The notes under the pieces were generated by a model, which was given only the letters and a program-made list of their open reading frames with translations, was not told the origin of the DNA and searched no databases. A stretch of DNA of 53,814 nt, the filler included, from Porpidia crustulata (Eukaryota), in NCBI GenBank assembly GCA_964255105.1. It is 3 parts of 3 records of this genome, joined end to end, with 100 filler letters (N's around TTAATTAATTAA, not from the genome) between each part and the next. Parts side by side here need not be neighbours in the genome. Positions count along the whole stretch, not along the records: positions 1 to 17,890 come from CAXUWE010000201.1; 2 more parts are not named here. The stretch is one strand, 5' to 3'. Made by a program: the position numbers and the translations under genes. Shown one piece after another: positions 89 to 19,699 of the stretch (its first letter is position 1; each line of letters starts with the position of its first letter).

Positions 89-733
89 ACCAAACGAACT
101 GATATATTATGTGCCTTAGCCGATGTATTCAAGAAATTCGAAATCTGGTGGTCGATAGAGGGGTTAAGTGATCGTTACAGTACTCCTTGCTATTGGCGGA
201 AGGGTGTCTAGGGATGTTTTTTTGTGCAATGGGGGGATTTGGGGTATTTTTGTTAGGTTTTTTTTGTTGAAGTGCGGGGTCGCGAGGTTTGTGTTGGTGG
301 GCGGGGCTTGGGGGAGCAGTGAGGTGGGTTGCGGCACTGCTGCCTACCTAATCTGGCTGGGTTAGATGGCTCGGGTTGTTACTCTTGGGATACAAAATGT
401 GGATTGTTTCCTACATGGAATAAGACAACTTTATGCAATAGTAGATTTTACACTTCAACATTTATGTATAGGAAAGTCTGGTGGCTGCGAAGATGCGATT
501 GGTTACTTTTAGTAAACAAGGCAGCTTGTTCTCGTAAGGAAAATGGTACATGGATGTGATTGATGAATTTATCATCAGAGATTCCGTCTAAGGTAGCTCA
601 TGAAAAGTGGAGTGGACGGTTGCCAAACGGGGGGCATCATCCCATGTGTAGAACCCAACAAACTTGAAACTCTGGCCAGGGCGGCCGCAGAACCCTCAAT
701 GCACTTTTTCCTTCTCGATAGGACCAATGTCCT

Positions 734-2357
734 TCACGCCGGCTTGGGACCGAACAGCTTGAAGCCTCCAGGCACACCGGTTTGGAAAAGTCCAGTGGGA
801 TCGTAGCGCTTACTGACCTTGCGGAGATTTGCCACGCTGTCCCGGCCGTAGGACGCAAGCGGGGTTTGGAAGTTTGCGGCATAATTGAGATACTTGAATT
901 CCTGGAAAAGGCCGGCGGCTTTTGTGGCCTGCTCGACACGGCCAATCAGAGTCTCTGCGACGCGGTTGATAAGATCGTCGTCTTCGGCTTGGTTCCACGT
1001 GATGGAGAGCAGGCACAACACTAATGGACCCTGGGACCCGTTGAGTCCAAGCGAGTTGCCGGGAACCACTGCAGGCATCCGTTGAAAAATTACAAAATGT
1101 TGGATCCCGGCCACGGTTTTGATGGAATCGACGGATGCATTCCATATGCTGTAAACTTCTTGGAGTATCGATTCGCTTGGGCCGAACACGGTGTTCACAT
1201 AAATGCCACTTGGGCCATAGTCAGTTTCCCACGCATGATGCAACGTTCGACTTGATTGGATTATTTACCGAGAGTTGACGGCTTGTTGTGACTCTTCTTC
1301 GGTCACAAAATCAACGATATTGGAGATCCTCATCGTATTGCCCAGTTGTGGCTGGATCGATGTAAAGGGTTGGAAGATCGGCGGATTCGCCACAGGTTTT
1401 GTGTAGTAGATGCCGTCCGATACAAGAAAGCCTCCTGTTGCACCTAGGTAACCAATCGCACAAACCATTTCCGCGTACGGGTCAAAGTTCATCGGGGTCA
1501 TTAACTTTTGAAAGGCTAGTAATTGTTGATGGACTGTGCTGCTAGGATAGGCGATGAACCCCCCCCAAAAGTCACTGCGTGGATATGTCTGAAGATCAAA
1601 TCGTGTCACTATTCCAAAGTTGTTAGACCCCCCTTTGAGGGCCATAAAGAGATCCGCATTCTCGTGAGCATTTGCGTTGACTATCTGACCGCCTGCCAGA
1701 ACGACCTCCATATTTGCCACGTTGTCGCAAGCAAAACCCTTTTCCGGCGAGAAGAATGAGATTCCACCTTGTTGATTACTTAGTTGTGCGCTATGATGTA
1801 ATCACAAGGGGCATAAACTTACCGCCAGTGATCAAGCCCCCAACACCAAGTCCTGCAACCCGAGCTCCCAAAACCGTAAGGTTCAATGGGAGAATCTTTG
1901 TGTAGACATCTTTCCAGATCGACCCAGCGCCAACGGTGGTGATCGATTGGTCAGGACTGACATTGATAGCGTTCATAGACCTCAAATCAATGGTGACGCC
2001 GCCATTGATGTTTGCCGCACCAGCGAATGGTGTGTGGCCTCCGCTTCGGATGGCAAAGGACGACGAATTGGGGTTTGTTTTCCGGCTTTCAACCATGGTG
2101 TTGATAATAAGTGAGACATCTGAAGCGCTCGTCGGACGGACTATGCAATGTGGCGAAAGACGGGCTTCTTGAAAAAAATACGAGCGTGTAGACGCCGAGT
2201 ATAGGGTATCATTCGGATACGACACTTTGTTGTGGAGAAAAGACGATAAAACGGAGCATGGAGCAGAGCCATTGTCCACAGCTGCGATCGTTGGGGAGAT
2301 TGTCACCAAAAATGCGGTAAAGAGTAGCAGGGCGTTGAAGTGGTAGGTGGACAGCAT
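734..2357 (-). CDS. Secreted FAD-linked oxidoreductase (berberine-bridge-enzyme/VAO-like), 3 exons
   Basis: N-terminal signal-like peptide (MLSTYHFNALLLFTAFLVTISPTIAA); FAIRSGGH flavinylation His motif; LKGGSNNFGIVTRF; C-terminal YLNYA...YDPTGLF..GGFKL; ORFs 1791-2357, 1265-1720 and 734-1243 joined by two GT-AG introns. Confidence 0.92.
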
Positions 2358-3301
2358 GGTAGAGATTGCTTAAGAATACTCGTAGATAGACCAATACTTA
2401 TGTGCTTCTTCGAGGCGAGCACACATGGCGGCAAAGGCGTCGTCTATGATCTAGTATATTAGAAACAGACATTAGAAGGGTTCCAATCAATTCGATCGCG
2501 TTATGCCCATCCGCCATGACTGCAACAGCTGGTAGCGGATAGAAGCTTTCGATGGATTGATAAGGGATATTGATGATCTGCATGATAGAGGCCCACGCAT
2601 GTGTCAGCGCAAGTGTCATCGCTGAACTCGGACGGATTTCGCTGGGTGGGATGGTGTAGAGGTGTGTACTTCGTAAGGGAGTCCACGGCCTATTGGATGG
2701 AGGCCCGTGTGGCGCATACAACACAAGCGAGCAATTCCCGTGTCTCCCACGTGTCTCCCAAGCGAATCAAGGGACTAAGGTACGGTAAATAAACTGCGGC
2801 AAAGCTCTGCGACAGTGTACCTGAGTAAAGTAGCGTCTTCGTTATATATCCCTATACTACGTAGGGTCTCGCAACTCCCACTGATATAGGTCGAGATGTT
2901 CAACAGATAAAATAAAGAAAAAGAAGAAAAAGAATCTTGGCGATTCAAAGAACCATATCAAATTAGTTTACCAATGCTGCTGGAATATTCCCGCATATCC
3001 AAGCTCATTTGCTTATATTTCACTTCCGGTAGAGAACTCACTTAGACTTAGGAGCTGATACCAGGGAAATCCAACAACCGATAAGTAATGATTCGGAAGT
3101 ACTCTTGGTGATGATCACATCAAGGAGGGCAAGAGAATAAAGTATAAACCGGATAAATTGAAAATCTGATTGGTCGAAAATCGGAACTGCTACTCTGACT
3201 AGTCTGGACGCCCATTGACCGTAGCTTCGTTCAAGGAATGGACTCGGAGTCGCAGCTGCTTAAACATTGCTCTCAATGTCCAGGAACAAAATAACTTCCT
3301 A

Positions 3302-4221
3302 TCAGGTCTGTATTTTTGCACGCGTGACCCACCATGCGATTACGAGAACGGCCATAGGCAAGAGAACCTTGAGAGAGGATAGAAGTGCATTCTGGATCCC
3401 TCTTCGCACAATCAGGCTTATCTTTTCGCCCAGCGCGGCCGATTCGTTGATACGGGGAAATTCAACGTTGGGGATCGGCTTGTTGAGAAATTTGCACAGT
3501 GGCTCCCAGCGGTCTTCCAGGTTGAATTTGAGTAGTTGCGATGAAGGCGTCACTCTCTCAATCAGTGCGTAATGTTCTCGGTATTTCCCTCTCGCTTTCT
3601 CCTGCATTTCTCCTTGCGAATGGGCCTCCATCCAACCCTCTGTCCAACGACGGGATGTTCCACCCAGTTTCCCAACAAAGCGAGTATCAAGTTGTGCAAT
3701 TAGCCGGATGATTGGGCTCCACACGTTCGCAATGACACCGTCGTTGAAGCTTTGATACCATTTTTCAAGGTCCCGCTCAACCAAGACAACCTTGACATCG
3801 GGATAACAGTGGAGCAGATCTTCTGCGAACGCAATGGCAGGTAGATCGGCGATCGCACTGTAATTACCAAGAAGCTGATCCCAGTCGGTCCGCATGAACA
3901 ATTTCCCTTTCCCAAAATATTTTGCATCAAGGGCTTCGTTCCACATCTCGGTGTCACGGACGTTGGCGATCAGAGTAAGACCATGGTAGCATGGAAAGCC
4001 CAGGATATTCAGTGCGAGCTGCATTGCTGAGGATGTGACCATCAACTTGAAGGCTCAAACCAAAATTTCGGAAGGGACATCATACATGCCGTTCCCGTAC
4101 GCGGCATGCCTAGGCTAAGAACTCTCATAGGGACCACGCGGCTGCGTTTTCGGGGATCCACGTCCATGGTGGTGGTAAAGAGCTCCGGATGTTTCTCTTG
4201 CATTGTGGGAAGCCTCGACAT
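3302..4221 (-). CDS. Sulfotransferase-like P-loop protein (Sulfotransfer_4-type) with C-terminal transmembrane anchor, 2 exons
   Basis: Spliced motif VLSLGMPRTGTA|SMQLALNILGFPCYHG; DLPAIAFAEDL; WEPLCKFLNKPIPNVEFPRIN; hydrophobic tail LKVLLPMAVLVIAWWV; start could also be the Met at 4203. Confidence 0.85.
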
Positions 4222-4976
4222 GATGTCAGAGGTCAGAATTTTATAGATCTGGATTTGGGAGATTTGTAGTGCGTAGGAGATGTGCTTGAACAGAGGACCA
4301 TTATCAGCATCCAATCTCAGTTTCGCCAGGGTAAGGCTTGCTTTACGGCAGTCCGCAGGAAAAGGAAACGGCGTGTACGCTATGCTTGAACATAGGATTT
4401 GGGGATTGACGGCGATATGTGACCTGATGAAATTCACTGCGTGGGAATTGACGGCTGATTCGAAGTCAGGTCGGTTGCAGGTAGGAAGAGTAGCAATTTC
4501 TCGCGTTGCGATGGGCTTTGAAGACAATGATGAATAGCGGGGACAAGAGTTCTTCTACTAGGGCTCCCGATTCATGAGTAAAAAACCCCGACATGCATTA
4601 CCTCAACACCCAAAGTATCAATAAACATTATGGAGTCTAGATTGCTAGATAGCTTTGATGATCTTTCAGATACTTAATGCCTCTCTTGGGTCTACGTCGC
4701 GATTTATTTCATACACCCTGACGGATGTTAGGTAGGTTCGTTAAGTTTCCTCGTACCGTCCCAATCGGTGAGGCTGCTTTGTAGACTATCCACTCGGATA
4801 ACAGGAAAACAGGATTGCAGGAATTTCAAAAACTCAGCGGTACAAGAAGAGGAAGTACGACAGGAATGAAGACTACAGAAGATGATTCTCTTTCAGTCTA
4901 GGTAGGTGCTAATACAAACTTCTACAAATCAACCGTCCGACCTATATCTCAAAGCCTATGGGGAACCGCTTGTTGA

Positions 4977-7083
4977 TCAGCTAGAGCTCTCTTTGTGCTC
5001 TGACCGTTTCCGGATCGAGATCTTAGATGACTCGTAGGGCATCTGAAATGTCTCCCAGAACCATTTATACGAGGTAGGTTCGTCTTCCAAGCGGAACTCA
5101 TAATTGGCTATAAGGTGAATGAGAGCCATCTTGATTACGAGGGCAGAGTGCCATCTACCAGGGCTACAGAGCCCAAGTCAGCATTGGCCTTTCAGGGCAC
5201 GTTGCATTTGCCTACCAGACTTTAGACCCAAGTCCCCAGATTGGAAAATCTTTGGAAGCATCGGTGAATGTTGTCCCTCGTAGTATATTGTCTGACGAGC
5301 CCGAAGCGGTACTATGTATGGTTTTGACAAAACGAAGGCCGTCGAATGTTTCGGCATTGGGATATTTTGACTCATCGTGCATGATGTCCCAGCCTGACAC
5401 ACACGCTATTTCACCGACCGACACATGAGGCCCACCGTTCGAGAAAGTGAAAGGTTTGAGCGCTTTGCGGCGGATTGACACTGTCGAAGCCATTAGCAGA
5501 TTCAGTGCTAGAAGCATTAGATGTGATTAGGATTCCACTCGCTTTTGTCCAGAGGGTTGACTCTCACTGCCTCTTTAATGAAGCTGTCAAGTATTGGCAG
5601 GCGATTGATGCTTTCGTAATTCATGCTTCCGATATTCTGGATTTCATTGTGTATCATCTCAGCATACTCTGGGCGAGCACACAGCTCCAAGAACACAAAA
5701 TGAAGATTCTTCTGAAAGTCAGTAATGAATGGGCCCTACCTGGAATAATGGGGCCTTACTATCCATGGTTGATGAGAAGCAGCGAACCATATCCCAATGA
5801 TGGCCTGGATAACGCTACTATGGGTCCAGTAGCTCGAGTCTGCTGAGGCTTTGATCATATTGTCGAACAATGTCATCTTTCAGATACCGTGTTAGGGTTT
5901 TAAAGATCGTAACTGAGGTAGATGTCAAGAATACCGATTTCAATACAGCATCTTCCTTCCAGCCATCATGATTTGAGTCTGCTGCGCGATGAAGACGTTC
6001 AAAGAGGACGTTCAGAGCATGACCTTTCTTCGTAATTATTGAGTGTACAAAGCTACCCAGATTTAGCAGGAAATCAAATGAATTGTCTATTAGGAGAAAG
6101 ACTCGCGATTGCGCAAACACAGGGACAATCTGTAGAGCTCCCATACACGCTACTGTGTCATCGTAGTAGCGAGACATTGCTGAACAGAAAACCGGTTCTT
6201 TGCCTGACTACTCGTCAGGTTCCAGGATTGGGGTATTTTGTTAAGCGAAAGCTTCATACATAGCTTTTCTCCGAAGAAGTACACTCCCAACATCCCGGTG
6301 GCCAAATCTCGCATTAAGGGGGCTATTCTAATGGAGTTCCAATCTAAAGAATCGGTTAATATACATTCAGTAGCTCGTGGGAATGCACAAAACCATCAGT
6401 AGTGATCTGAGAATCAATCCTTTTCTGAAACGTCTTTGTTAGTCTTGCGTGCAGGTACGGCTGAAGAGCATTTATTTGTGATAGACCATTAATGCGGATG
6501 GCCCGAGCAAAAAGGCGATAGCGCAGGTTTATCTGCTCGTTGGGATCCAATTGAATTTCAGCATGGCTCATGGTGTGCTTAAAGCCAAAAATCTGCTTAT
6601 AATGAGCCTGAAATACTCATACTGAGCATTATAACGAACATCTGCATACACAGCTCGCTGAGAGAGCTCTGACGCCTCGCTGAGCTCCTCCATAGCATCT
6701 GGCGATCGAATAATTACAGGCTCTTGCCGTCCGAAGGGTCGATAGTATATGCCAGATCGCTTGTCATTGTCAGCCAGATATGGGATGATGCTCTAGATCG
6801 AAAACCCTTACAAAATCTCGGATTATCTTCATGAGGCGTGTTGAAGAAGAGGACAAAGATTGAATCCATCTAGACACAAGCGGCGAAGAGCGGATGGCAA
6901 ATTGAGGGACCTTGAATACAATTAGCGAACATTTATCTCCTTATGCAGCACCTAGGTACCATTCATATATACCGGAAGACACAGATAGACCTCACCGGCT
7001 AAGCCATATAGGAGGACTATTGCAAACAGGGTTTTCAGGACTTTCTCTACCGCTGGGCCTGGCTCTGTGATGCTGTCCATCAT
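4977..7083 (-). CDS. Cytochrome P450 monooxygenase, multi-exon (ent-kaurene-oxidase/PaxP-like group, tentative)
   Basis: N-terminal anchor LKTLFAIVLLYGLAG; ExxR in LDSFIKEAVRVNP; YPNAETFDGLRF; haem motif WGLGSKV-C-PGRWHS with the Cys codon split TG|C by an intron; stop TGA at 4979-4977. Confidence 0.9.
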
Positions 7084-7998
7084 GGGACAAAAGTAGAAGG
7101 CCAGATTAAGCGAGTGCTTGAGAATTCGCGAGGAGTTGGGTGATATTTTCACAACTGCACGACTTCAGCTTGTGGGAAGATAATTTGGAAAGTGAAGAAG
7201 AGAGAGCTACCACCATCGCACTTGTTCTTGTCCGCCTCCTTGGCACATACTGCTGATGAGACTCAGAGCTTGCAGACATTTTTATCCAGGCTCCAGGGTC
7301 ACGAGGCGACATTAACTGGAACAGACCGCTCATTGCCTCAATGCCGCGCACTTAGTCCCATTCGCAGGGGCGAGTGGAGTTCATCGCCGACACTTGACCA
7401 GGTTTATCGAGAAAGCATTCAGTGAGACCGAAAGCTTAAGCGTAGCACATACGATTGACCGACCACGTCTTGCACCTAGTTGACCATGAGAGTCGCAGGA
7501 TACGGACACGGTGTGGTGGGCAATGGCTTAGTGGACTGCAATCTTGTGGTGTAAAGCCTTACTCGCGTCATGCATCTATGTCCGGAGTATTACTGGCTCA
7601 ACTCCTAGGCAACCACTGCCTGGTTTTCTGGATGACTCAATCACAATGCATACATACAAGCAAGGCATCGCATAACGGTTGGCTAAAGATTGAGAAAGGC
7701 AAACACGCCACCTACAAACATATGGGGCTGCTTTCCAGCGAGGTCTTGAGGTACGATAAAACGGGATGCATCTAATTTCGTCTGTTAAACCTCTTTTGAT
7801 AAGGCGCCGCTTCAGCTTATCGGCTGGCGCAATCACAGTGCAGGATGGAGCCTCATTGTCCTGAAGGGTAATCCCGGCTCGACCGGGTCTCCTATGATGG
7901 TGTGAGGCATTTGTTGTGTATCCCTGATAGTGTGAATGTCAAGATGTTCGTTGGATGAAGGTTTGCGGGCTTTTAATTAACCCCGGCATTAACACCCG

Positions 7999-8031
7999 CT
8001 TTTAGATCCTTTTAGATCCTTTTAGATCCTT
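7999..8031. repeat. 10-bp tandem repeat (TTTAGATCCT)x3
   Basis: tttagatcct tttagatcct tttagatcct read directly. Confidence 0.9.
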
Positions 8032-8104
8032 CGGGCGCTCAGCCTTGCCTTGAATGTATGGTATGTGGGTCTAAGGCACTTACCTACCTCACCACCTTAC
8101 CTAC

Positions 8105-8192
8105 TCAGGCTAGTTCTTAACGTCCGGACATAAAAGCGAGAATTACCGCCTAAAATCAACGTTTTGTGTCCGGACATTAAACACCAGCCTGA
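8105..8192. repeat. 88-bp inverted repeat with 31-bp arms (MITE-like/hairpin)
   Basis: Left arm 8105-8135 tcaggctagttcttaacgtccggacataaaa vs reverse complement of 8162-8192 tcaggctggtgtttaatgtccggacacaaaa: 26/31 identical. Confidence 0.85.
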
Positions 8193-8503
8193 AAGCTAAA
8201 ACAAGTGGCATGTAAGAGCACCCGACCCCCCCGGATTCTGGTGCTACTATGCACTGCAACAGGCCGGTAGGAGGCTGAAGTGACATTATGAAGGCCACGA
8301 AGACAGCCTTGCTGTAGGCTCTAGTCAGTACGGGGGTAGTATATGCGTCTCATCATCGCTGCACAGCTGCCTATGGTGCCTATGGTCACCATCTTCTGTC
8401 TTCTGTTCGCTATCCGATAGCTGCGCCCAGCCTTCAGAAACCACCTGCCCGTCCACAGGCCAATCTCCGCTGTACCGCAACACCCTCCATCATCACCTCC
8501 ATC

Positions 8504-9450
8504 ATGACCCTCAAATCCGTCCTCATCACCGGCTGCAGCGCCGGGGGCATCGGATCCGCGCTCGCCGAATCCTTCCAGAAGCGCAACATGCGCGTCTTCG
8601 CGACCGCGCGCGACCCGTCGAAGATGTCCCATCTCGCCGGTCTCCCGAACGTGACGCTGCTCACGCTCGATCCGACTTCTCCCGCCAGCGTACGGGCTGG
8701 TGCGGAAAGCGTGGGCGCGCAGACCGGCGGCACACTGGACTACCTGGTGAACAATGCGGGCCAGACGATCATCATGCCGACGTTGGATTTCGACGTCGAG
8801 GTCGCGAAGAGCATGTACGATATCAACGTGTGGGGGATGATTCGCGTCACTCAGGAATTCGCCTCGCTCGTCATAGCCGCCAAGGGCACTATCGTTAGCA
8901 TTAGCTCTATCGCTACAAGCGTCAACACGCCTTGGATGGGTGAGGGTTTACGAAGCTGCAACGAGGGCGATAGATTCGCTAACGAAGGTGCAAGGTATCT
9001 ACGCCGGCTCAAAGGCAGCGATGACCGCCATCACCGACACTCTCCGCCTGGAGCTGGCCCCCTTTGGCGTCAAGGTCGTGACGGTTCACACCGGAGCCGT
9101 CAGTACGAACACCCTCTCGCGCGGCACCGATTTCAAACTCCCAACGACGTCAAGATACACGGGAATTGCAAAAGAGATCGCCGGTCGGGCTCGAGGCGAG
9201 GATGGGACTCCACGGATGACGCCTTCGGTCTATGCGGAGAAGGTCGTGGGTGATGTTCTCGGAGGAGCCAGCTGGCAAGTCTGGAGAGGCGGGTACGCTT
9301 CGATCGTGCGCTTCACGTCGTCGTGGTTTCCGGCGTCGGTTTCGGTCAGTCAACCGTAACGTTCGCTATGCCGGAGTATTCGGTCACTGACAATGTGATT
9401 AGGACTCGATGTCGACGCGAGGCACTGGATTGGACGTCATGAAGGTCTAG
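8504..9450 (+). CDS. Short-chain dehydrogenase/reductase (Ayr1/17beta-HSD-like classical SDR), 3 exons
   Basis: VLITGCSAGGIGSALA (TGxxxGIG), LVNNAG, catalytic YAGSK, LRLELAPFGVKVV; introns ~8940-8994 and ~9345-9402; last exon DSMSTRGTGLDVMKV*. Confidence 0.93.
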
Positions 9451-9720
9451 AGAGCTTTTAGAACTTGGCAGTCTCTTCATAGGCGGGTCTACAATCAACA
9501 TTTCAACTTGTACTCTCGCTGTTCATAATTGTCAGAAAGTGGCATCTGAAACATGAGACTCGTACGATCAACATAATAACAGAAGGCTAAGTTCAAAAAT
9601 AAGCATGGAAACCAACATCTCATCTTGTCATATGATACAAAGATTACTCCAACAACGCAGCAGAAAGCATTGTATCCAACGCAGACCATTTGCACAGGCC
9701 CACGTCCACACCCGTGCCCT

Positions 9721-11307
9721 CTATTTCGGATCCCAACCCTTTCGCGGTTGTTGTCCTCGAGCTTCGTCGGTCGTACTTTTCTGTTCAACCTGATACTGCA
9801 AATGAATCCCATCTTCTTCCACCTCCGACGGGTTTCCCGTGTGGATGTAGGTTCGCATGGACCGGACCGGCGCCATTTCGTAGCCGCGATCCCTAAAAGC
9901 CGGGTTGGAGACTTCCAAGTCTCTGTACTCGGCCCTTTTTCGCTTGCTGTACGACGGTTCCGAACCGGAAGACTTGCCACGATGAGAGGGCCAGCTCGTT
10001 GAGAAACGTGAAGTCAATGTTGAGCGCAACCGCTTCCAGCTGGGCAGATGATGGAGGAGGCTTGACATCGACGGCTGCAAATTCCCGTCAACGCAAAACT
10101 CGGGACGGGGCGAATCGTCTGGAACATACCATGCAGCTAGCCGTCACTCCGACGCACATTTCAACAAGACTGCTACCACGTCAGCTTCAGGAAGGAAGCA
10201 CAGAGACTCCGAAATTACCCACGACGCGAGGATGACCGGCATTGTCTCATAAGTTATGTCGGTGTAATCATGGGTAAGCACCCACTTGAAATAAATACTG
10301 AGTGATGATGCGATGCATGCTCTGATACGCTGTCAGTCACGCTCGGATGATAACCAAAACGGGAAACGAAAGGTCACTTACATCACGCCGGTAAAGAATA
10401 CCGCAATTACCCCAAGCTTTCGCCTGATTGGTAGCTGGAGCTTGCTTACCCCTGCAATGGGTAATACTAAAATGTAAACATCCAGGACAAGGCTGATGGC
10501 GGCGATTGGTATGGTCAACGGCACTGTCCGGGCCTGCCGCGGACTCTGCACAGTTTGCTGCAACGTTTCTCCGGGGGTTGGGACCGTGAATGCGAATGTA
10601 GCAATTAGGATCGAGGCATAGAAGAGAACGGTGAAAGTTGCACCGGCATAAGAGCTATACCTGAGCCACTTCATGGGACGAAAAAGCTGAATGTAAAGCA
10701 AGAAGAAGCTAAGTTTGGCGAATGTCCAGACTATCACCGTGACCCAGTTGGCGAAGAATCCCGTCTGGAGAGGGTGTGAGATAGAGTAGCCTGGATCGAG
10801 ACTCTAACTTCAACGCACCATGAGAAAGTTATTACTTGCAAGATCGCCTAGGGTCAGGTCCCACATGTGCGTTCCAAAATGTCCAATGGTAACAGCTGCT
10901 TGCAGATTAGATCTGAGAGACGCTAAAAAGCTCCCTCAGAGTACGTACCCAAGACCGCAATAACGAAGTAGAGCACAGTGCCAACCTGGAAAACGTCAAT
11001 TTTCATTGATGGTGGTGCTTTGGACAGGGCTTACTGTGGCAATCACGCAGGTGTCTGTGTGGATTAGTATCAGGTTAAATGGGTTGAAATCAAACTTACA
11101 GTCGTCCGGACTCGACTTCCTTACAATCCTGAATTTGGTGTAGATCCTCACGGACACAAAGAGCAACATGATAGCTAGCAGTATTGAACCCACAATGATC
11201 AGCACTTGACCATCACCATGAGGGTTCTCAAGGTTCGGGAGCACGCCTGCCGGAGGCTTGGCGGCTGGTACGCCTGCCAGCTTCGCTGGGTCGCTGGCGT
11301 CTGCCAT
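9721..11307 (-). CDS. PTH11-like (fungal rhodopsin-domain) integral membrane protein without CFEM, multi-exon
   Basis: PAAKPPAGVLPNLENP N-terminus; VRIYTK..DD; GHFGTHMWD; FAKLSFFLLYIQLF; LDVYILVLPI..V.KLQLP.R.KLGV..VFFTG; CVGVTASCM. Confidence 0.88.
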
Positions 11308-12019
11308 TATGGACAGAAGAGCGGTTCCGTGTTCGCACCAACGAGGCCGAAGAGAGGTGAGATATTTGAGAAGTGGAATACAACAACGTGTGGAGCACGA
11401 ATGATCTAGAAGGAATACATGGAACTTAACAAAGCTTGGAGAAGCCGTGAATGGAGTGGCATTGAATTCCAAAAAGCTGTATGCAAGTAATTTGGGTTCC
11501 GAAACACTAAAGGATGATATGCACTCCGCCAACTTACTCAGCTGCATCAGTGTAGCATGAGTGTGCCAAAGCAATGAGCCAATGGCAAGAGCGCATACTA
11601 CAAGGTTCTTACCACACCGACTGATTGGGCTCGGAAGATAGGAATAATACGACATCCCCGGGAAATATTGCCTGCATGCTACCTTGCGCTCCACCAATGA
11701 GATATCTAGGACTTGCATACCTTAGGATCCTTTCAAAATAACTGTCAACGGCGCGTGCAGCATGTGGAAAGTTCCACGAAGCATGCCATTTACCAGGTGC
11801 AGACACACCATTGGTGAGTCGCCTTGCTCACACCATCAGTTCTGCCTCGTTTTCGGCATTTAAAGCAGCTATTATGGGGAACCATACAGTCGGTGTCGGC
11901 ACCCGAATCGGAGAAATGCCCGCTATATCAAATATTGGATATAGCAGCCGTGTATCAGAACCTGCGTGGGTTGGATTTGTTTCCTGCGCTACAGACATTA
12001 TACCAAGATGTTGACTTTC

Positions 12020-13913
12020 ATGGATTCACTGTCTTCACAGGATTTTCTGGTCTCCCGTTTCTCACAGCAGCCTGCGTTATTCACTGCTGTATCAGCACCA
12101 GTGTTTCTGCTGATATGGAGACTGTGGAGGTTCACCATTACTCCAATCCTCTATCCAATGAGCCCCAAAGAGCTTCCATACTGGATCCCATGTAAGCTTC
12201 ATCGCCAATCTACAAGCTTCAGCCTGGTCTGCTGACAAGATCATTTGTAGATCTAGGTATGCGTTCTCTTGAGCTTCTAGTTCGCATTACGCTCGCTTTA
12301 CTCACAGGACGCACATCTTAAAGGGCACACTATCCCTTTCTTTCTGAATTCTTATAAAATCTTGGAGAAGGGGCGGTAAGACCGACTATGATATTTTGTT
12401 AGCGCCGAGATGAGAAATTGACATATCTATAGCAAATATTTTCGGAACTCCAAAGAGCCATATTCAATCACTGTGGCCGGGCAAGTGATCTACATTATCA
12501 CATCTCCCGAAGATGTACAGGAACTCTACAAGCACACCACCACTATTTCGTGGTTACGTTTTGTCCAGGACCTGTATCGATGGATTGGCATTTCGCAGCC
12601 AAATATTGATAAACTTTGGCGAGCTCCAACAGAAGACCAGAAAGCCAAAGATCCTACGCGAAAGTTTCCCCCGAACCAGATGGTCGAGGAGTATCAATTT
12701 CACCAACTGCTTCCGGGTGAGAACCTGGACAAGATTGCGAAAACCTTTGTCCGATACGTCGACGAAAAGGTGCGCTGGCAGCAGCTCCAAAAGAAGTGTC
12801 CCTATATTCAAGGATCTTCTCCCAATTCCGTTAAGATATCGCTGATGGACTGGACCGCGGATGTCTTCCTCCACACCACTACGGAGATATACTGGGGAAA
12901 AACCATATGGGAAGTTGCTCCCAAGTTAATCGAATCCTTCTTGAAGTGGGAAGAGACGACTTGGAAATACGTATTCCAGCTTCCACGCTTCCTGAGCAGA
13001 GATATGTACGCGGCAAAAGACCAGCTTGTCGACGCGTTTACGGCCTACTTTGAACAACCGAAGAGCAAGAGGGGAGATGCCACCTATTTCGTCGTGACGG
13101 CGGAGGAAGAACTAAGAGAAATTGGATTCAAAGATCATGATGTTGCGAAAGTGAACATGCTGCAACACTGGGCGTAAGTAAAGTTCGGAGGATCGATTGA
13201 TCCCCCCACAACTCCTTGTCTTCATCCAATTGTTTTCACCACCTGGAATCCCCGATAGCTCATGTGATTTTAGCGTCAACGGAAATATCCACAAAGTGAC
13301 TTTCTGGATCTTCGCCTATCTCGCTCACAACCCCAAATTGCTTGAAACCATTCGAGCGGAAACCATGCGTGGTGTGGTCGACGATATTCCCGATGTCCCG
13401 TACCTGATTGGGGAATGCCCCCGATTGGAGGCGGTATTCCTTGAGGTCCTGCGCTTGAAAACGTCGAGTTCCTTGATGCGCTATGTTACAGAAGCAACCA
13501 TGATCGGAGGCAAAATGCTTCGAAAAGGCCACAACGTCATGGTACCCTACCGTCAGCTGCACTTTAGCGAGGACGTTTGGGGAGACAATGTTGCCCAATT
13601 CGATCCGGAACGCTTCTTGACACAGCAACACTTGTCGCGGAGCTCAAGTTTTCGGCCGTTCGGCGGAGGCCAGCACCTGTGCCCCGGCCGTTTTCTCGCA
13701 AGGCGCGCCGTCTTTACGTTTGTGGCTCTTGCCCTCTCAAGATTTGACATTAGCCTCGACACGGCAACGATTGAGGAGCGGCGAGATTGCAAAGTCGGTG
13801 GATGCATGCCGTCCTTTCCCAGAGCGGACGAATCAAAGCCGGGACTTGGGACACTGGCACCAATTGCCGGGGATGGAGTGATTTTGCGACTCCAACCTCG
13901 TGACCACACGTAG
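12020..13913 (+). CDS. Cytochrome P450, CYP7/CYP8-like clan; exons 12020-12191, 12251-12256, 12324-12375, 12433-~13174, ~13274-13913
   Basis: PKELPYWIPYLGH after splicing; I-helix HWA-VNGN; LEVLRL (ExxR); FDPERF; FRPFGGGQHLCPGRFLA haem motif. Confidence 0.93.
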
Positions 13914-14265
13914 CCCAAGCTTACCTATAAATCAAAGTCGACATTCTCTCAGCTGTGTCGAAGTCGGATCCTACAGTGTAGCAAAACCAGCTCTTGGACT
14001 GCGGACGCTGATCGGCAAGCTCGAGTTGGACCGGAACGGAAAGTGTGATAGATTTTACTTTCTTTACTGTTCTGGGATTGGGAAAATCTCCGCATCGCTT
14101 GCTTTCGTGATGGTGTACTCGTCAGAATCTATCTTGGGCATTCGCTCAGTCATATTAGATCAAGCTTCAATTATGAATCATTATATTTGGAGCCGGACCT
14201 TGTAGTCTCGAGCACATCAACCTTACTGCTAGCGCCATTCTCCGACGTGCTGTGTGTGGATCATG

Positions 14266-16051
14266 TCAAACATCATGCCCAGTCTTAGTTTTCTTTTCTT
14301 TCAGGCCAAACTCAGTCTCTAACTCGGTCCTCAGTTCGATTTCCTTCTCGAAAAACACAAGGAAAAAGCCCAAGCCAGAAATGCCGACAGCAGCCTGCCA
14401 CACAAGTTTCAAACTGTCGGAGTAAACACCGATGACTTGATTTTGTAGAGCTGGTCGATCTCGAAGAGAGTTCACAAAGTTGCCAGTCGCATGTTCGTAT
14501 GCCTGACCTCCGGAGAGCAGCATTCTTACTGCAGGATCACTTATCCGCATAGAAAGGCGTGCAAATCGATTGTTGAAAATAACCGCAGAGATTGTGATTC
14601 CCCATATTGTTCCAAAGCTGCGTGATACTGCCCAAATCCCTGTTGCTGTAGCCGAGTCGGCCTCGGAAAGCTCTGCTTGGGCTGCAGCTAGTAAGGTCCC
14701 AATAGAAAGGCCCGTGCCGGCAGCAAAGATAATCTGAAATACGATCCACATAGCCGTTGAAGAACGATTGTCGAGCAGAGTGAAGGTCCCAAAGCCGATC
14801 GTCATGAGGGCAAAACCAGCGTGATGAAAAGGGCGATATCTGCCGAATTTCTGCATTGCACCACCACCAATTGCGCCAAAGACCATGAGCATAATGACGG
14901 TTGGCAGCATCTGGACTCCTGATCGAGCTGGTGTCGAGCCCAGGACTGCTTGAAAATATATTGGCATGAAATATATCTCCCAGTACATGAGAAGAGTGTG
15001 AATGAATGTAAGAGCGAATGCTGTTGCGGAAGTCCTGTTTGCAAAAAGCTGTGGCGGCAGAGTGGGTTCGACGCACAGCTTTGAGACTTCGAATATGTAG
15101 AAAAGCCCTAATCCGACAAAGCCTGCTACCAGGGGAAAGATTATGCGCCAGGATGACCAGGAATATCTTGTTCCCCCATTTGTGAGCGCAATCAAGATGG
15201 ACGTGGTGGCAGAAATAAAGATGGCGTTGCCCGTATGGTCGACTCTTCTGAACTTTCCCATAAACGTCGACTGCTTTTCGTACCTGACGTGTAGGAAGGC
15301 CAACAGAAGGATCATTGCGACAGCCCCAATGGGAAGATTGAGATAGAAAACCCAGCGCCAAGTGGTAGTCTCCACAATAATGCCACCAAGGAAAGGTCCT
15401 AGACCAGTTCCTATGGTGACTGCACCAAAAATGATGCCCATGACACTGCCACGCTTTCTGAGTGGCACCAGGTCACAGACAATGAGATCAACAAGCATGG
15501 TGACGCCACCTCCACCGATACCTTGAATTGTACGCCCCGCAATGAGCATGGTCATACTACTCGCACCCCCGCTGATCCCACTACCAAGCATAAAGAATGA
15601 TATTGCGAATAATATAAGAGAACGCCGGCCAAAGATGTTGGCGGTCTGACCGTATAACGGCTGCAAGGCAGTACTTAGTTCAGTCATTGCTGTCAGCTTG
15701 CGAAACAAGGACTTTCATAGCGAAAAAGGATAAGGATCGGGACATGTACCTGGTTAAGAAGTATGAGTTTACTACCCACACGTACAATTCCCCGCCATGG
15801 AGATCTTGGATAATGCTAGGCAAGGCGGTCGATACAACAGTACCTTCCATCGCCGGTAATAGAGCTGTGACAGAGAGCGCTGTGATGACTGCCCAATACC
15901 GCCACCCATAATTAAGTTCCGTCTTGCCATTAGTGACTTCTCCCTCGACATGGACACTTTTTGGCCCTTTGGCTTTGGTAGGTTCGGAAATAGAGCAATC
16001 TTCGAATTTCAAGTTTTTATTTGCGTCTGGACCACAAAATGCAGCTGCCAT
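14266..16051 (-). CDS. MFS drug/metabolite exporter (DHA2-type, about 14 TM), 2 exons
   Basis: MEGTVVSTALPSI; YGQTANIFGRR (motif A); GRTIQGIGGGG; GPFLGGIIVETTTWRWVFYLNLP. Confidence 0.93.
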
Positions 16052-16932
16052 GCGAAGGTTCGACGCAAGACCTCGTGGATCTTTTGCTGGATGACATTCT
16101 TAGGCAGAGGTAGCGGGGTGTACCAGAAGATATAGGAAGTAAAAGCCGTGGAAGACCTGCAGTATCAGGTACCGATGTAGCTCAAGTCTTCCTTGCATAC
16201 TAAGCGAGCTAGCCTAGGAAATTATTCCCCGGCTGGGATCTTAACTCTTCTTTACGAAGGTAGGGGCTGGAAAAACGCCAACGGGTATTATGTTCGTTTT
16301 TCTGACTTGGTTTTACCCTACCTTAGACTACTTTAATCTTTATGCAATTACTCGTATCTGTGAGTTGTAGCTACTCCGCAGGGATCCTGCTGATCTGTGA
16401 TACTGTGCCACCCAATTGGCCATACGTCCCATGAAACATGCAAGAGCATCCTACACCTCAACCATTTCGGAAGTACCATGAACCACACGAATCAATCAGC
16501 GCTCTTTCGAGTGGATTGTAGAGAGATTTCCAAGAGTGGCTAGAGCTGATTAGGAATAAGGTAATGAAACGCTGATCATCACATTTTTTATTTCCTGCAA
16601 GCTGTGTAGTTGCCTGGTTGCACTTTGAGGTATGATTCGAGAGCGAGCGAGATGCCTCAGCAGACGATCTTGGTTAGCGTTCCGGAGTTGAGAGGGTGTG
16701 TCGTGGGTGAGCGAACGAGAATACAATAGGACGAATGCATTATCCCAATTATCCCCGCCGATAGTATAGCGATCTCACTGCCGAGTTCAATACCCAATTT
16801 AGGTTTGGAGGCGGAAGGGCTTACCGAACTGCGTCCGCCTACAAGTTGCTCCTTTTTCTATCGCCAGTATTTTATCTTGAATGACTTGTAACTTTCATTT
16901 TGTTCACCAACACAGACTTGCGTCCGCAAGCA

Positions 16933-17381
16933 ATGGAGTCATATATATTTTCATTTAACCGCCTCCTTCCACTGTGGATTCTTTTGGTACCTAAGCTCCA
17001 ATCTTCCAGCCCTCTTGCTTGCAGTACTAATTTTCGAATGCGGTCTAGACGTCTCTGATGGCGATCGGGCAAACCTTCGCCGCCTACACGAATTCCGGTC
17101 GAGCAGGGAATGCCACTGGCGAAGCAGCGCTCTCTGTACGCAGATTCGGCACATGGACCTTCTTGGCTGGCATCATCCGTCTATACGCAGCCTACAAGAT
17201 CGACTGCAGCGAGCTTTACCTTCTCGCAATGTGGACATATGGTATTGTTGTTACCCATTATACTGTGGAGTGGGTGGTCTTTGGGATACATGATTCAGGG
17301 AGAAAAGGGGCTCTGCTCGTATCTATATGCTCTTTGTGCTGGATGATTGCGCAGTCAAACTCTTTCGGCAATGCTAGTTAG
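16933..17381 (+). CDS. ERG28-like: Erg28-like ER membrane protein (diverged), 128 aa; exons 16933-16986 and 17049-17381
   Basis: Spliced protein MESYIFSFNRLLPLWILL|TSLMAIGQTFAAY...RRFGTWTFLAGIIRLYAAYKID..LYLLAMWTYGIVVTHYTVEWVVFG matches the Erg28 pattern LPxWLL..S..N..Q.Y...RTFGTWT....IRLY.AY......LY....T...A..HF..E..VF; intron GTACCT...TACTAAT...CTAG. Confidence 0.85.
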
Positions 17382-17890
17382 ATAGAAACTTTCGCAAAAA
17401 GGCGATTCCGTCTTCTGAGAATCAGGTGACCGAATTGTCGAGTCATTGGGAGTAACGCGACCCAGTCCATAAAATTCGGCTGAATTTAGTTGGTATTCGT
17501 AAAGAATTTCCTCGACCTTCAGAACGAGACTGGTGGCATGTACAGCGCTATGGAAATAAAATCGTAAAGTCGCCATAATATAGATGGTGTCGCATCAACG
17601 GCGAGAAGATAATGATAACCCTTGGGCAACAGCCTAACTCGAGTTCAGAGCTGTCTTTAGCGTAGCCTTACGGGCCCTTCTAAAGTTCAGGCACGCTAGG
17701 TTCTTAGCTTCAGACCCAAGCAAGGGATCCCAGCCTAGATCTAACCTGGATCTAACCTAGCATGGCACAGAGTAAATATCTACCTTACACTGTATCCGGG
17801 CGAAATGTTGTTAGGCCACTACACTAAGCTCCCTACTAGCGCCTAATGGTGAGTGCCAGAATATTCGACCTTCCTTCCTACCTTCCTCCC

Positions 17891-17990
17891 NNNNNNNNNN
17901 NNNNNNNNNNNNNNNNNNNNNNNNNNNNNNNNNNTTAATTAATTAANNNNNNNNNNNNNNNNNNNNNNNNNNNNNNNNNNNNNNNNNNNN
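17891..17990. other. Assembly gap linker (44N-TTAATTAATTAA-44N)
   Basis: Exact 100-nt symmetric spacer with stop codons in all six frames; same structure at 35856-35955. Confidence 0.97.
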
Positions 17991-19699
17991 CTAGCGGTGG
18001 TGGACGGGCCCGGAAGTGCGGTCTTGGACGTGGAGCCCGAGACGGGGCCCAGGCCGGGGATGGCGAGGGGGAAGCAGCTGGAGAAGAGGGGCAGGTTGAG
18101 GAGGGAGATGAGTCTTTTGGTGAACGTTGGTTGTTTGCTGCTGCCGAGGGTGGCGTCGACGTTCAGATCAACCTCGATCGCGAGCGTGGACGTGAGCTGG
18201 ACGCCTGTGGTGGATGAACCCGGGGTTTTGGTGCAGAGGCCCTTGGGGTCGTACGCGGCGGTCAGGGCGGCCGAGACCGAGGGGAGCTTGAGCACCATGG
18301 CGACGTCGAAGGTGCCGACGCCCGTGAGCTCGATGCCGAAGGCGAGTTTGGGCTGGGCGAAGGCGGCGGCGGTGACGGAGGCCGAGAGGGCGGTGACGTC
18401 GAAGTTGGGAGTGATCTTGCCGCCGTCGAAGCCCGTGGCGGACGAGGCGCCGGGGTTTTGGATGTCGGCGGTGATTTGCGCGGTGTCGGGGACCGAGGCG
18501 CTAAGGCCGTAGGCGAAGGCGGCGGTGCCTTTGACCGAGGCGGAGACGCCGACTTCGTAGCTGATGGTGGTGCCGAGGTGGAAGATTCCCGTGATGGCGA
18601 TGCCGGCGCCCGGGACGCCGGCGGCGAAGAGTTCTTTGGTGTAGGAAAGGGCTTTGAGGGCCTCGACAGCGGAGACGGTGGTGGTGAGCTGGAGGTCGGC
18701 GGTGAAGCCTTTGGGCTGGCCTTGCAGGGTCAGGGATTTCAGGGAGAAGAAGGATACGGAGACGTGGCCGGTGAGGGTGAAGGAGCCGGTGGTGAAGCAG
18801 TTGACGCAGTCGATGGAGACGCGTTGTTTGATGTCCGGGTCGGTGAAGATGTTGGTGACTTTGCCCGGGGTTCCAACATTAAGGCCGAAGGTGATGGATT
18901 TGCTGAGATCGAGGTTGCCCGTCAAGGCGCCCCCTATGCCCGAACCAATGCTGGAGATGCCGTTGCCAATGTCGCCAAGCAAGTCACGTTTGGCTGTGGG
19001 GCGTTGGTAGGGAATGACCTTGCCAAAATCCATCTCGTACGTGCCTGCTACTTTGTCCCATGAGGCTGTCTTGGATGTCAAGTGTGTTGTAAGAGTTTTC
19101 GAATCCTCGACTAGGTCCGTGATGCTGCATCGATGTCAGTATAGATACTGGAAATATAAATGGTGATTCTTACTAGTACGGTTGTCTTTCGTCGGCAGGA
19201 CTGCAGCCCTCGTGATTGGCAATCAATAAAAATTTCTTCTCCGGTGCCGAGTTAATATAGTTCCACTGCTTCACCGCATAGCTAAAGGCAGCTTCGGACT
19301 TGAAGGTCAAAGACATGGCTCCATCGGCGCCGCCGCAGTCGACGGATTTGGTCAGGCCTTCGAAACGTTCCATCATGATCATCTGTAGGCCATCCGGAGC
19401 ATATAGTGTCATGTTGGCGAATAATAGCTGGCCATGTTCTACTGAATGTCAGTTCAATATCTTTTGGGGAGGATTTTCCGGAAGTACTTACCACCGGGAG
19501 ATCCGTACACCAATTGTGATTGGCTTTCTAGATCCAGATGAGAGAAATCCTCTGTTGATCGACGGTGCAAGCCTTGGGCATGTTCAAACGCAAAAATGTT
19601 AATGGGTGTGAGAACCTGAGGACCTGGTTCGGCGTTTGCAGAGACAAAGACCGGGAGCGCAGATAGCACTGCTCCCAATGCCAACGAGTGTACACGCAT
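17991..19699 (-). CDS. Secreted/cell-surface protein (DUF7029/DUF7223-like), 3' end lost in the gap
   Basis: Signal peptide MRVHSLALGAVLSALPVFVSA; MMERFEGLTKSVDC; LIANHEGC; IDCVNCFTTGSF; beta-rich Thr/Ser/Gly C-terminal region; two introns; family call from memory of motifs. Confidence 0.72.

Follow-up and report, generated by a model that had tools for sequence, protein, structure and literature searches.

Why should a gene of the Erg28 family lie head-to-head with a transporter gene, in a group of genes for tailoring enzymes, in the genome of Porpidia crustulata? In yeast, plants and humans, Erg28 is the endoplasmic reticulum (ER) scaffold of the sterol C-4 demethylation complex (S. cerevisiae Erg28p, human ERG28/C14orf1 and the Arabidopsis orthologue), and a gene of this kind could be either the ordinary housekeeping copy or something that belongs to its neighbours. 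A first-pass annotation of the window (the whole 53,814-nt stretch of DNA analysed here) had taken the second view, describing a diverged Erg28 homologue embedded in a gene cluster. As far as sequence comparison can tell, this is indeed a real, cluster-linked Erg28 variant. The window consists of three contigs joined end to end, and the contig of the Erg28-like gene spans positions 1-17890; any "housekeeping neighbours" that the gene appears to have in the window are artificial, because they lie on the other contigs. A search of sequencing runs traced the DNA to a single run, with no RNA run among those listed.

An intact, spliced Erg28-family gene without the canonical signature residues

The gene has two exons and encodes a product of 128 aa, with an intact ORF and correct splice sites (Table 1). 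Exon 2 alone matches the Pfam Erg28 profile PF03694 with 70.4 bits (E 1.8e-19; profile positions 9-95 of 111), against a curated cut-off of 22.2 bits, and exon 1 is colinear with the N-terminus of canonical Erg28 (M.SY......LLP.W.LL). The motif LLPxW(I/L)L(L/F), with GT directly following, is present in four of the five other loci scanned (L004, L005, L044 and L070) and was not found in the fifth, L055. Because the exon 1 motif and its GT donor recur in this way, the intron position is common to the window gene and other Erg28 genes, so that the window gene shares both this position and the N-terminal LLPxWLL with ordinary fungal Erg28 genes. Hydropathy peaks at residues 4-31, 72-98 and 104-122 give the small multi-pass membrane layout of the Erg28 family; the segment FGTWTFLAGIIRLYAAY stays below a simple hydropathy threshold because of R41. 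A PDB search for an Erg28 relative returned none (the best match, E 0.25, is unrelated). With Erg28p and its human and Arabidopsis orthologues the window protein has in common its Pfam family, its size, its hydrophobic layout and its core motifs. The gene belongs to the Erg28 family and is intact and spliced, and the two-exon model together with the PF03694 score confirms the spliced 128-aa Erg28-like ORF that had been called at 16933..17381.

Table 1. Features of the Erg28-like gene and its contig, and the contig junctions, in positions along the window.
Feature	Position	Strand	Remarks
BBE-like FAD-linked oxidase, signal-peptide-like N-terminus	734-2357	-	appears intact; aligns to residues 13-499 of P0261
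Sulfotransfer_4-family protein	3305-4554	-	199 bits; nearest solved structures are sulfotransferases
Cytochrome P450 'A', several exons, approximate bounds	5064-6667	-	52-73% piecewise to the P450 adjoining the L005 Erg28-like gene
Short-chain dehydrogenase (adh_short), two exons	8504-9356	+	domain match
Fung_rhodopsin-domain multi-pass membrane protein (PF20684)	9498-11721	-	homologues adjoin Erg28 genes in L004, L044 and L070
Cytochrome P450 'B'	11818-13910	+	43% identical to a P450 in L044
MFS transporter (MFS_1, TRI12-like)	14269-16051	-	ATG at 16051; at least 2 exons
Divergent intergenic region, 881 bp	16052-16932		between the MFS ATG and the Erg28-like ATG
Erg28-like gene, exon 1	16933-16986	+	18 codons, MESYIFSFNRLLPLWILL; ATG at 16933; first half of TM1 (LLPLWILL)
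Erg28-like gene, intron	16987-17048	+	62 nt, GT..AG, CTAAT branch-like site
Erg28-like gene, exon 2	17049-17378, TAG stop 17379-17381	+	110 codons; PF03694 match
Artificial spacer, N44-TTAATTAATTAA-N44	17891-17990		right end of the contig of the Erg28-like gene
Artificial spacer, N44-TTAATTAATTAA-N44	35856-35955		contig junction

Every near-universal core residue of Erg28 is present in the window protein (R28, F30, G31, T32, W33, T34, R41, Y43, A45, Y46, Y54, H67, E71, W95 and M96), and the family core motifs RxFGTWT, RLYAAY, H-x-x-x-E and WM are retained. The residues that typify canonical Erg28 at other positions are lost. In the set of 118 canonical representatives, 77 of the 98 rows without a gap at position 5 have N there and 72 of 101 have Q at position 8, where the window protein has Q and A; the serine of HFxSE is found in 74 of the 118 and a glycine at position 83 in 73 of them, where the window protein has V and K. 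It therefore reads Q-T-F-A-A-Y for N-S/T-I/V-Q-x-Y and H-Y-T-V-E for H-F-x-S-E, with R29 and K83 in place of canonical T/L29 and G83. Compared with proteins of the Erg28p type, it is missing two residues of NSIQxY (N and Q), the HFxSE serine and the loop glycine; neither the canonical N nor the canonical S occurs in any of the 17 divergent-clade rows described below. The motif departures noted in the first pass (GQTFAAY for GNSxQxY and HYTVE for HFxSE, with FGTWT kept) are thus borne out against the 118 canonical representatives.

Relatives and placement in the Erg28 family

To lecanoromycete Erg28 proteins (Lepraria, Stereocaulon, Lecanoromycetidae sp. and P0010) the window protein is 43-45% identical, which places it outside the range of 54-83% that the named lecanoromycete proteins show among themselves. 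Lepraria finkii and Stereocaulon each have an ordinary Erg28 of 133 aa, and the canonical ERG28 loci at hand reach only about 65% protein identity to Lepraria-type Erg28. The closest relatives are five sequences that are 61-65% identical across most of exon 2, and a fragment of 88 aa reaches 71%. Aligned with these five sequences, the window protein shows 37 invariant columns (56-62% alignment identity). A profile search of 1.84 billion representatives gave 329 matches at E<=1e-3, with the window gene's own group forming one 50% cluster (204 bits) before a drop to 109 bits. The divergent clade as a whole comprises about 19 sequences, nearly all of them metagenomic, and each named lichen genome in the list of relatives contributes only an ordinary Erg28. 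A divergent Erg28-like gene is easily missed: NCBI has a record for a single member of the clade, and no member is named to species.

Phylogenetic analysis, which the first-pass annotation had named as a check on its reading, separates this group with moderate support. In a tree of 135 rows, a single change accounts for the 17 divergent rows (0 of 500 shuffles were as low), and 16 rows form a divergent clade with an SH-aLRT of 89; in a tree of 114 rows that includes named species, a divergent clade of 19 rows (SH-aLRT 87) lies outside the Eurotiomycete, Dothideomycete and Lecanoromycetidae housekeeping Erg28 groups. The Erg28 alignments are short (106-137 columns), no branch separating the divergent clade is starred in either maximum likelihood tree, and branches within the clade are long. 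Forcing the window's six-row subclade together with nine Lecanoromycetidae housekeeping rows lowers the lnL by 50.07, and the joint tree is not rejected by the AU test (p-AU 0.0885). Both trees place the window gene outside the named housekeeping Erg28 groups, and the description of the gene as a diverged homologue agrees with its identity values, its lost signature residues and its separate position. Between the Erg28-like genes of L005 and L055, dN/dS is 0.44, which is only moderate constraint.

We note in passing that the presence of divergent and canonical copies within single metagenome assemblies was considered as evidence and set aside, since such assemblies contain DNA of several fungi and some canonical sequences escape the scan pattern.

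Neighbours on the contig and at other Erg28 loci

The Erg28-like gene shares its 17.9-kb contig with a set of tailoring enzymes and a transporter. As had been proposed, it stands head-to-head with the exporter, whose gene runs on the minus strand from an ATG 881 bp away, and the two P450s, the short-chain dehydrogenase (SDR) and the sulfotransferase-like protein named in the first pass are all found, in addition to a FAD oxidase and a Fung_rhodopsin protein. The best named matches of the FAD oxidase come from Lepraria neglecta (79%), Pyrenodesmia (73%), Dirinaria (65%) and Psora (65%), and the automatic names of its relatives point to polyketide-cluster oxidases. These matches make a lichen-forming lecanoromycete the probable host. 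A search for PKS, NRPS and terpene synthase/cyclase domains was negative for all 46 window ORFs of 110 aa or longer and for 67 of the 133 shorter ones (55-109 aa) left of 22.4 kb. As either end of the contig is no more than 740 bp from a gene, a core gene may lie beyond the contig.

Nothing among the genes of the contig is specific to sterols, and no 3-beta-HSD or Erg26-like gene is present on it. Two candidate assignments in this direction were rejected. The SDR was considered as an Erg27-like 3-ketoreductase, but its nearest structures are generic SDRs and it is without an N-terminal anchor before the Rossmann motif; the FAD oxidase was considered as a sterol oxidase, but it gave only generic BBE/VAO-type matches.

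The linkage of an Erg28-like gene, a FAD oxidase and P450 'A' recurs in another fungus. At L005/L006, an Erg28-like gene (47-49% identity), the oxidase (63-64%, middle exon) and P450 'A' (52-73% piecewise) all lie within 5 kb. That orthologues of these two enzymes adjoin a divergent-clade Erg28-like gene elsewhere bears out the earlier view of the gene as embedded in a cluster. At L055-type loci, the Erg28-like gene again adjoins the same oxidase (56-63%, or 63-64% in the middle exon at L055), which is truncated, being cut off by a stretch of 21-32% GC; exon 1 was not found, and the invariant G of FGTWT is V. Such a locus looks like a decaying relic. Intact independent cases of the linkage within the divergent clade therefore number only two, the window and L005/L006.

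Overall, 11 of the 70 Erg28 loci examined, representing five locus types, have window-type neighbours at E<=1e-6. Among the other loci of at least 10 kb, 22 of 23 are without such neighbours even at E<=1e-3, and the remaining one, L029, has two borderline matches. The window gene thus differs from genes of the Erg28p type in its surroundings as well, being linked to a FAD oxidase, P450s and an MFS transporter and not to the ordinary neighbours.

Partial resemblances extend to Erg28 genes outside the divergent clade. L044 combines an Erg28 gene with a FAD oxidase (48%), P450 'B' (43%) and a Fung_rhodopsin protein, and L004 combines one with P450 'A' (42%) and a Fung_rhodopsin protein, so that three to four gene families, Erg28 included, are common to the window contig and these two loci. 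At L004, L044 and L068/L070, the Erg28 gene lies beside an NSDHL/Erg26-like 3-beta-HSD (E 3.6e-39 to 6jkg). All three have a Fung_rhodopsin protein at 31-42% to that of the window, but they carry the 3-beta-HSD that the window contig is without, their Erg28 proteins fall in another region of the tree (with Xylographa and near Acarospora), and HFxSE is kept in two of the three (L070 has HFGAE), where the window protein has HYTVE. One possibility is that these loci are ERG28/ERG26 housekeeping pairs from other lichen lineages; another is that they form a second group of paralogues.

A putative membrane scaffold and its alternatives

The reading that we prefer, at a probability of roughly 0.45, is that the gene encodes a diverged, paralogue-type Erg28 protein that is a fixed component of the cluster and most likely serves as a membrane scaffold for the oxidative enzymes of the pathway. 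By analogy with known Erg28, the product would be a small multi-pass membrane protein, presumably of the ER, whose gene would be a fixed part of a secondary-metabolite-type neighbourhood, and it would do for its own pathway what Erg28 does for sterol C-4 demethylation. We infer that it would bind the membrane-associated or lumenal oxidative enzymes of the cluster (the two P450s, the signal-peptide-bearing FAD oxidase and the SDR) and hold them together at the ER membrane, and that a lipophilic intermediate would pass between the tethered enzymes.

Two kinds of described clusters may be set beside this proposal. The helvolic acid module is said to consist of a P450 and a short-chain dehydrogenase, and we know of no Erg28-like gene reported in that cluster. 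It acts on a triterpenoid, whereas the window shows no triterpene cyclase and no sterol-specific enzyme. According to the available parts of its description, the helvolic acid cluster is a precedent for a fungal cluster with its own C-4 demethylation/oxidative module, acting on a triterpenoid and distinct from that of the sterol pathway (PMC5696383). The second case bears on the earlier remark that no cluster with a dedicated Erg28 had been described, a remark weakened by the presence of an Erg28-like domain in type III PKS clusters: in the sections available of Navarro-Munoz and Collemare 2020 (PMC6985275), the domain is enriched in one clade of these clusters, clade 7, the enrichment being a domain count of 0.625 in a very small clade (Table S22). 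As portrayed in those sections, an Erg28-family gene is counted in a predicted cluster that also holds a P450, as on the window contig, but the clade 7 clusters have a type III and a reducing PKS and a CMAS-type methyltransferase, none of which is on the window contig (PMC6985275). The Erg28 genes of clade 7 are known there from domain counts and not from sequence analysis (PMC6985275).

Among other explanations, the one that survives best, although we judge it unlikely, is that a duplicated Erg28 persists as a passenger under relaxed selection and plays no part in the neighbouring pathway. The dN/dS of 0.44 within the clade, the long branches, the degenerate appearance of L055-type loci and the lack of a core synthase on the contig would all be compatible with such drift. 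Against it stand the intact ORF with correct splice sites and the 37 columns that do not vary between the window protein and the five sequences closest to it; moreover, the linkage to the oxidase and P450 'A' has outlasted divergence of the Erg28-like proteins to 47-49% identity, and window-type neighbours are missing at 22 of 23 ordinary loci of at least 10 kb.

A protective or regulatory role seems to us quite unlikely. Here the linked paralogue would be a decoy or an insensitive Erg28 substitute that shields the producer's C-4 demethylation complex, or it would divert sterol intermediates. Extra copies of target proteins are a known theme in fungal clusters, but Erg28 is, to our knowledge, neither an enzyme nor a known drug target. 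If the C-4 demethylation complex were the target, the pairing of Erg28 with an Erg26-like 3-beta-HSD at L004, L044 and L068/L070 would be expected, yet the window contig has no Erg26-like gene, and the loss of signature residues equally fits a new partner. A literature search gave no report joining ERG26, self-resistance and a gene cluster; a link to the Erg26 inhibitor FR171456 was likewise considered and dropped, as the search gave no gene cluster for the compound. For the Erg28-like genes of type III PKS clusters, the available text of PMC6985275 does put forward a decoy or self-protection role, as speculation.

We regard as very unlikely the possibility that the protein has gained a direct role in chemistry or transport, for example as a small membrane-embedded cyclase, isomerase or lipid-handling protein, and is no passive tether. 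It is in keeping with such a role that the polar residues R28, R41, H67 and E71, all within hydrophobic segments, are kept in both clades while others change. Small integral-membrane enzymes are also a known surprise of fungal clusters, but we know of no catalytic member of the Erg28 family, and no related solved structure emerged from the PDB search.

Finally, it is highly improbable that this is the organism's sole ERG28, a fast-evolving housekeeping orthologue beside accessory genes: the AU result allows a Lecanoromycetidae grouping, and the scan gave no canonical locus from three assemblies in which only L052, L053 or L055 appears (the scan pattern would miss the Lepraria and Stereocaulon types, TWTFV and TWTLV), but the protein is too distant from lecanoromycete orthologues for their own range of identity, it has lost the N, Q and S of most of the 118 canonical representatives, its clade is without a species-named member while named lichen genomes give only ordinary Erg28, and its surroundings do not resemble those seen at 22 of 23 ordinary loci. 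A canonical ERG28 is presumably also present in the same genome.

Extending the scaffold reading beyond this contig, we offer tentatively, and as a proposal that is on balance doubtful, that in lichen-forming fungi an Erg28-derived lineage has moved off ergosterol synthesis and has been recruited to serve a private oxidative module as its dedicated tether. Such a module would combine P450s with a BBE-like FAD oxidase and an SDR or, in sister neighbourhoods, with an Erg26-like dehydrogenase, and it would modify a lipophilic, perhaps steroid-like, specialised metabolite. Metabolon scaffolds are usually invoked for primary pathways, and clusters are read as enzymes, transporters and regulators; if the proposal is true, this would be the first instance in which a pathway scaffold without catalytic activity has been duplicated and passed on as part of a biosynthetic gene cluster. 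A conserved scaffold copy would imply that certain fungal pathways may depend on a membrane organiser of their own, a point relevant to the frequent failure of heterologous cluster expression, and divergent Erg28-like genes could serve to mark an uncharacterised family of lichen clusters. They may also make partner recognition by Erg28 proteins accessible to study: N5, Q8, T/L29, S70 and G83 are candidate partner-specificity positions, because they are changed in the window protein.

The Erg28-like gene and its contig

The first-pass annotation had described a diverged ERG28 homologue embedded in a gene cluster; what stands of that description is a genuine Erg28 variant, diverged and cluster-linked, whose marks are lost residues, placement in a small separate clade and a recurring linkage to an FAD oxidase and P450 'A'. 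The spliced 128-aa product proposed there is upheld by a two-exon gene model, in which exon 2 alone matches the Pfam Erg28 family (PF03694) at 70.4 bits (E 1.8e-19; cut-off 22.2). The residues of exon 1 line up with the N-terminal end of ordinary fungal Erg28. Five further Erg28 loci were scanned, and in four (metagenome contigs L004, L005, L044 and L070) LLPxW(I/L)L(L/F) again runs straight into GT, so that these genes share the intron position; in the fifth, L055, an exon 1 of this form was not found. The shared position supports the gene model as well as common descent with Erg28 genes. A simple hydropathy scan of the protein finds hydrophobic stretches at residues 4–31, 72–98 and 104–122, and the segment FGTWTFLAGIIRLYAAY sits between hydrophobic stretches. 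The gene had also been placed head-to-head with the exporter, and the start of the MFS transporter does lie 881 bp from the Erg28-like ATG, making a divergent pair.

Table. Features of contig A, the first of the three records (window positions)
Feature	Position	Strand	Remarks
BBE-like FAD oxidase	734–2357	-	signal-peptide-like start; apparently intact against residues 13–499 of database protein P0261
Sulfotransfer_4 protein	3305–4554	-	
P450 'A'	about 5064–6667	-	
SDR	8504–9356	+	
Fung_rhodopsin-domain membrane protein	9498–11721	-	
P450 'B'	11818–13910	+	
MFS transporter	14269–16051	-	start 16051
Erg28-like ATG	16933	+	sequence reading
Erg28-like exon 1	16933–16986	+	18 codons, end ...LLPLWILL
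Erg28-like intron	16987–17048	+	62 nt, GT..AG
Erg28-like exon 2	17049–17378	+	stop TAG 17379–17381

In both N runs, 17891–17990 and 35856–35955, TTAATTAATTAA is flanked by 44 N on either side, which makes an artificial spacer that stops every reading frame. The window therefore joins three distinct contigs, neighbourhoods are not readable across the gaps, and the true context of the Erg28-like gene is window 1–17890 only, in agreement with the 17,890-base contig on which the protein database places it. The acyltransferase, ISN1 and NTE1 to its right belong to another contig and are thus uninformative on synteny or a cluster border; because both ends of contig A lie within 740 bp of a gene, the neighbourhood may extend on either side. 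A search for PKS, NRPS and terpene synthase domains gave none among the window's 46 ORFs of 110 aa or more, nor in 67 of the 133 ORFs of 55–109 aa that lie left of 22.4 kb. Contig A carries no sterol-specific enzyme, its SDR is of a generic type, and the relatives of its FAD oxidase bear automatic names drawn from polyketide clusters.

Elsewhere in the window, the second contig opens with a DUF7029-domain protein (17994–19448, minus strand) that has a long Ser/Thr/Ala/Gly-rich low-complexity stretch and is unlinked to the Erg28-like finding. On the third contig a Methyltransf_23 gene stands beside a Zn2Cys6/Fungal_trans transcription factor (47718–51038, plus strand), a pair that may be part of another accessory-gene region, and a separate 10-N gap (37629–37638) falls within a 432-aa ORF without a Pfam match.

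Divergence from ordinary Erg28

Besides the window's own product, a word-based search of 5.8 billion proteins returned five relatives, all from metagenome or read-archive assemblies: four share 61–65% identity with it across most of exon 2, and the fifth, a fragment of 88 aa, shares 71%. When 1.84 billion representatives were searched exhaustively with a profile, 329 Erg28 proteins scored at E ≤ 1e-3, with the gene's own group forming a single 50% cluster at 204 bits and the next match down at 109 bits. The window protein and its five nearest relatives, at 56–62% alignment identity, have 37 invariant columns in common.

For the motif comparison we used the 135 of 155 sequences that fill at least 85 of 107 columns, namely 118 canonical rows and 17 divergent ones. 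The window protein keeps the family core (R28, F30, G31, T32, W33, T34, R41, Y43, A45 and Y46, as well as Y54, H67, E71, W95 and M96) and deviates at N5 (N in 77 of 98 canonical non-gap rows), Q8 (72 of 101), T/L29 (95 of 118 canonical rows), S70 (74 of 118) and G83 (73 of 118); N5 or S70 is present in none of the 17 divergent rows. Residue frequencies in the two sets thus bear out the housekeeping motifs given in the first-pass annotation. Named lecanoromycete Erg28 proteins are 54–83% identical to one another over about 130 aa, whereas the window protein shares 43–45% with them over 97–99 aa, and at the sequence level it is chiefly this gap in identity that marks the gene as probably not an ordinary ERG28 orthologue. 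Lichen fungi are the source of many of the named Erg28 matches.

On the 135-row tree the 17 divergent rows require only one change (0 of 500 shuffles as low), and the window protein falls in a 16-row clade with an SH-aLRT of 89. To a second tree, of 114 rows, were added species-named proteins, the window protein in its spliced form and the genes of L044 and L070. Its named proteins group by taxonomy (Eurotiomycetes, Dothideomycetes, and Lecanoromycetidae with Lepraria, Stereocaulon and Pseudocyphellaria), and the window protein lies outside all named taxonomic groups in a 19-row clade (SH-aLRT 87) whose sole NCBI-recorded member is P0036, an 81-aa 'hypothetical protein'. The branches that set these clades apart all fall short of the 95% star, and forcing the window's six-row subclade together with nine Lecanoromycetidae housekeeping rows changed the likelihood by -50.07 units at an AU p of 0.0885, which is no rejection. 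The separate placement of the window protein on trees of 106–137 columns is suggestive, not decisive. Synonymous sites are saturated in dN/dS comparisons with the window gene; between the Erg28-like genes of L005 and L055 the ratio is 0.44 (Nei–Gojobori), pointing to purifying selection that is not strong, and one partner may be decaying.

Nearly all divergent-clade proteins were predicted automatically from metagenome or read-archive contigs and start at the first Met of exon 2, and annotated lichen genomes list only ordinary Erg28; annotation may overlook this small spliced gene.

Gene context at other Erg28 loci

Gene context elsewhere is the strongest new evidence for the linkage. A contig scan with the divergent-clade alignment yielded 70 metagenome loci encoding Erg28 relatives (by best match 59 canonical-like and 11 atypical), all of which were compared with a panel made up of ten translated pieces: the FAD oxidase, P450 'A', P450 'B', Fung_rhodopsin, MFS, SDR and Sulfotransfer_4 proteins of the window, the 3-beta-HSD of L004, and a P450 and a Fung_rhodopsin protein of L044. 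Panel matches at E ≤ 1e-6 occur in 11 loci, which near-identity collapses to five locus types (L005/L006; L052/L053/L055/L059/L060; L044; L004; L068/L070). Among the 32 loci of at least 10 kb, 23 are ordinary, and 22 of these have no panel match even at E ≤ 1e-3; L029, an ordinary locus of this length, has two borderline matches. Erg28-family genes recur with the FAD oxidase, P450 'A', P450 'B', Fung_rhodopsin, and 3-beta-HSD or SDR genes, whereas ordinary Erg28 genes do not.

The L005/L006 type belongs to the divergent clade (protein P0016), its Erg28-like product being 47–49% identical to the window's. A convergent FAD oxidase lies less than 400 bp away (63–64% identity over the two C-terminal exons, 46% over the FAD-binding exon), followed by a P450 that is 52–73% identical, piecewise, to P450 'A'. 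At L055-type loci (protein P0054) the Erg28-like gene adjoins the same oxidase (56–63%), the N-terminal half of which is replaced by 6 kb of 21–32% GC without long ORFs (L055:11700–18000; also in L053 and L060), a stretch that resembles an inserted repeat altered by repeat-induced point mutation. Since half of the oxidase is lost, exon 1 was not found and the invariant G of FGTWT has become V, we read this locus type as a decaying relic.

The remaining types carry an Erg28 gene with related neighbours within a few kb: in L044 (4666–17081) an FAD oxidase (48%), two P450s (one 43% identical to P450 'B'), Fung_rhodopsin and 3-beta-HSD genes, and in L004 (9749–17846) and L068/L070 (L070:9700–14490) Fung_rhodopsin and 3-beta-HSD genes, with an additional P450 'A'-like gene (42%) in L004. 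For the L004 3-beta-HSD the best match is human NSDHL (E 3.6e-39), which is the orthologue of Erg26. HFxSE is kept in the Erg28 of L004 and L044 and reads HFGAE in L070, and all three genes group with Xylographa, near Acarospora, in the tree. Such loci might represent housekeeping ERG28/ERG26 pairing in other lichen lineages, or else a second group of paralogues or a second specialised module.

A candidate tether, its alternatives and the probable host

An ER membrane protein without catalytic function, Erg28 tethers the enzymes of sterol C-4 demethylation. Four features bear on mechanism: the kept family core, the replacement of specific conserved polar residues, the signal-peptide-like start of the oxidase, and the conserved linkage of the Erg28-like gene with the oxidase and P450 'A'. 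On the best-supported reading the Erg28-like protein would serve as a dedicated ER-membrane tether for the oxidative enzymes of the contig A pathway, with the changed residues as candidate specificity determinants for new partners. A module akin to C-4 demethylation is made conceivable by the Erg26-like genes of sister neighbourhoods, and the helvolic acid cluster (PMC5696383) is a precedent for a private one.

Among the alternatives, a decoy or resistance role has an antecedent in PMC6985275, the one paper found to bear on the question: it suggests decoy or self-protection for Erg28-like proteins, the genes themselves not being analysed there, and by its Table S22 this domain is over-represented in type III PKS clusters of clade 7, at 0.625 of a very small clade. 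In the open full-text literature we found no description of the divergent clade or of its FAD oxidase/P450 linkage. A passenger duplicate under relaxed selection would fit the degenerate look of the L055 type and the moderate L005/L055 dN/dS; the recurrence of the linkage speaks against it. A sole housekeeping gene would fit the unrejected AU constraint and sits poorly with the low identity to named lecanoromycete proteins. A gained catalytic role would be a departure for the Erg28 family, no member of which is known to be catalytic.

The best named matches of the FAD oxidase are in Lepraria neglecta (79%), Pyrenodesmia sp. (73%), Dirinaria sp. (65%) and Psora testacea (65%); Lepraria and Pyrenodesmia are Lecanoromycetes, as we take Dirinaria sp. 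and Psora testacea to be. Together with the many lichen fungi among the named Erg28 matches, they point to a probable lichen-forming lecanoromycete as the host. Two further oxidase relatives, P0271 (62%) and P0333 (49%), both of Ciborinia camelliae, lie on a single 894-kb contig with a difference of five between their locus tags; this non-lichen fungus may have a cluster that includes two oxidases of the kind.
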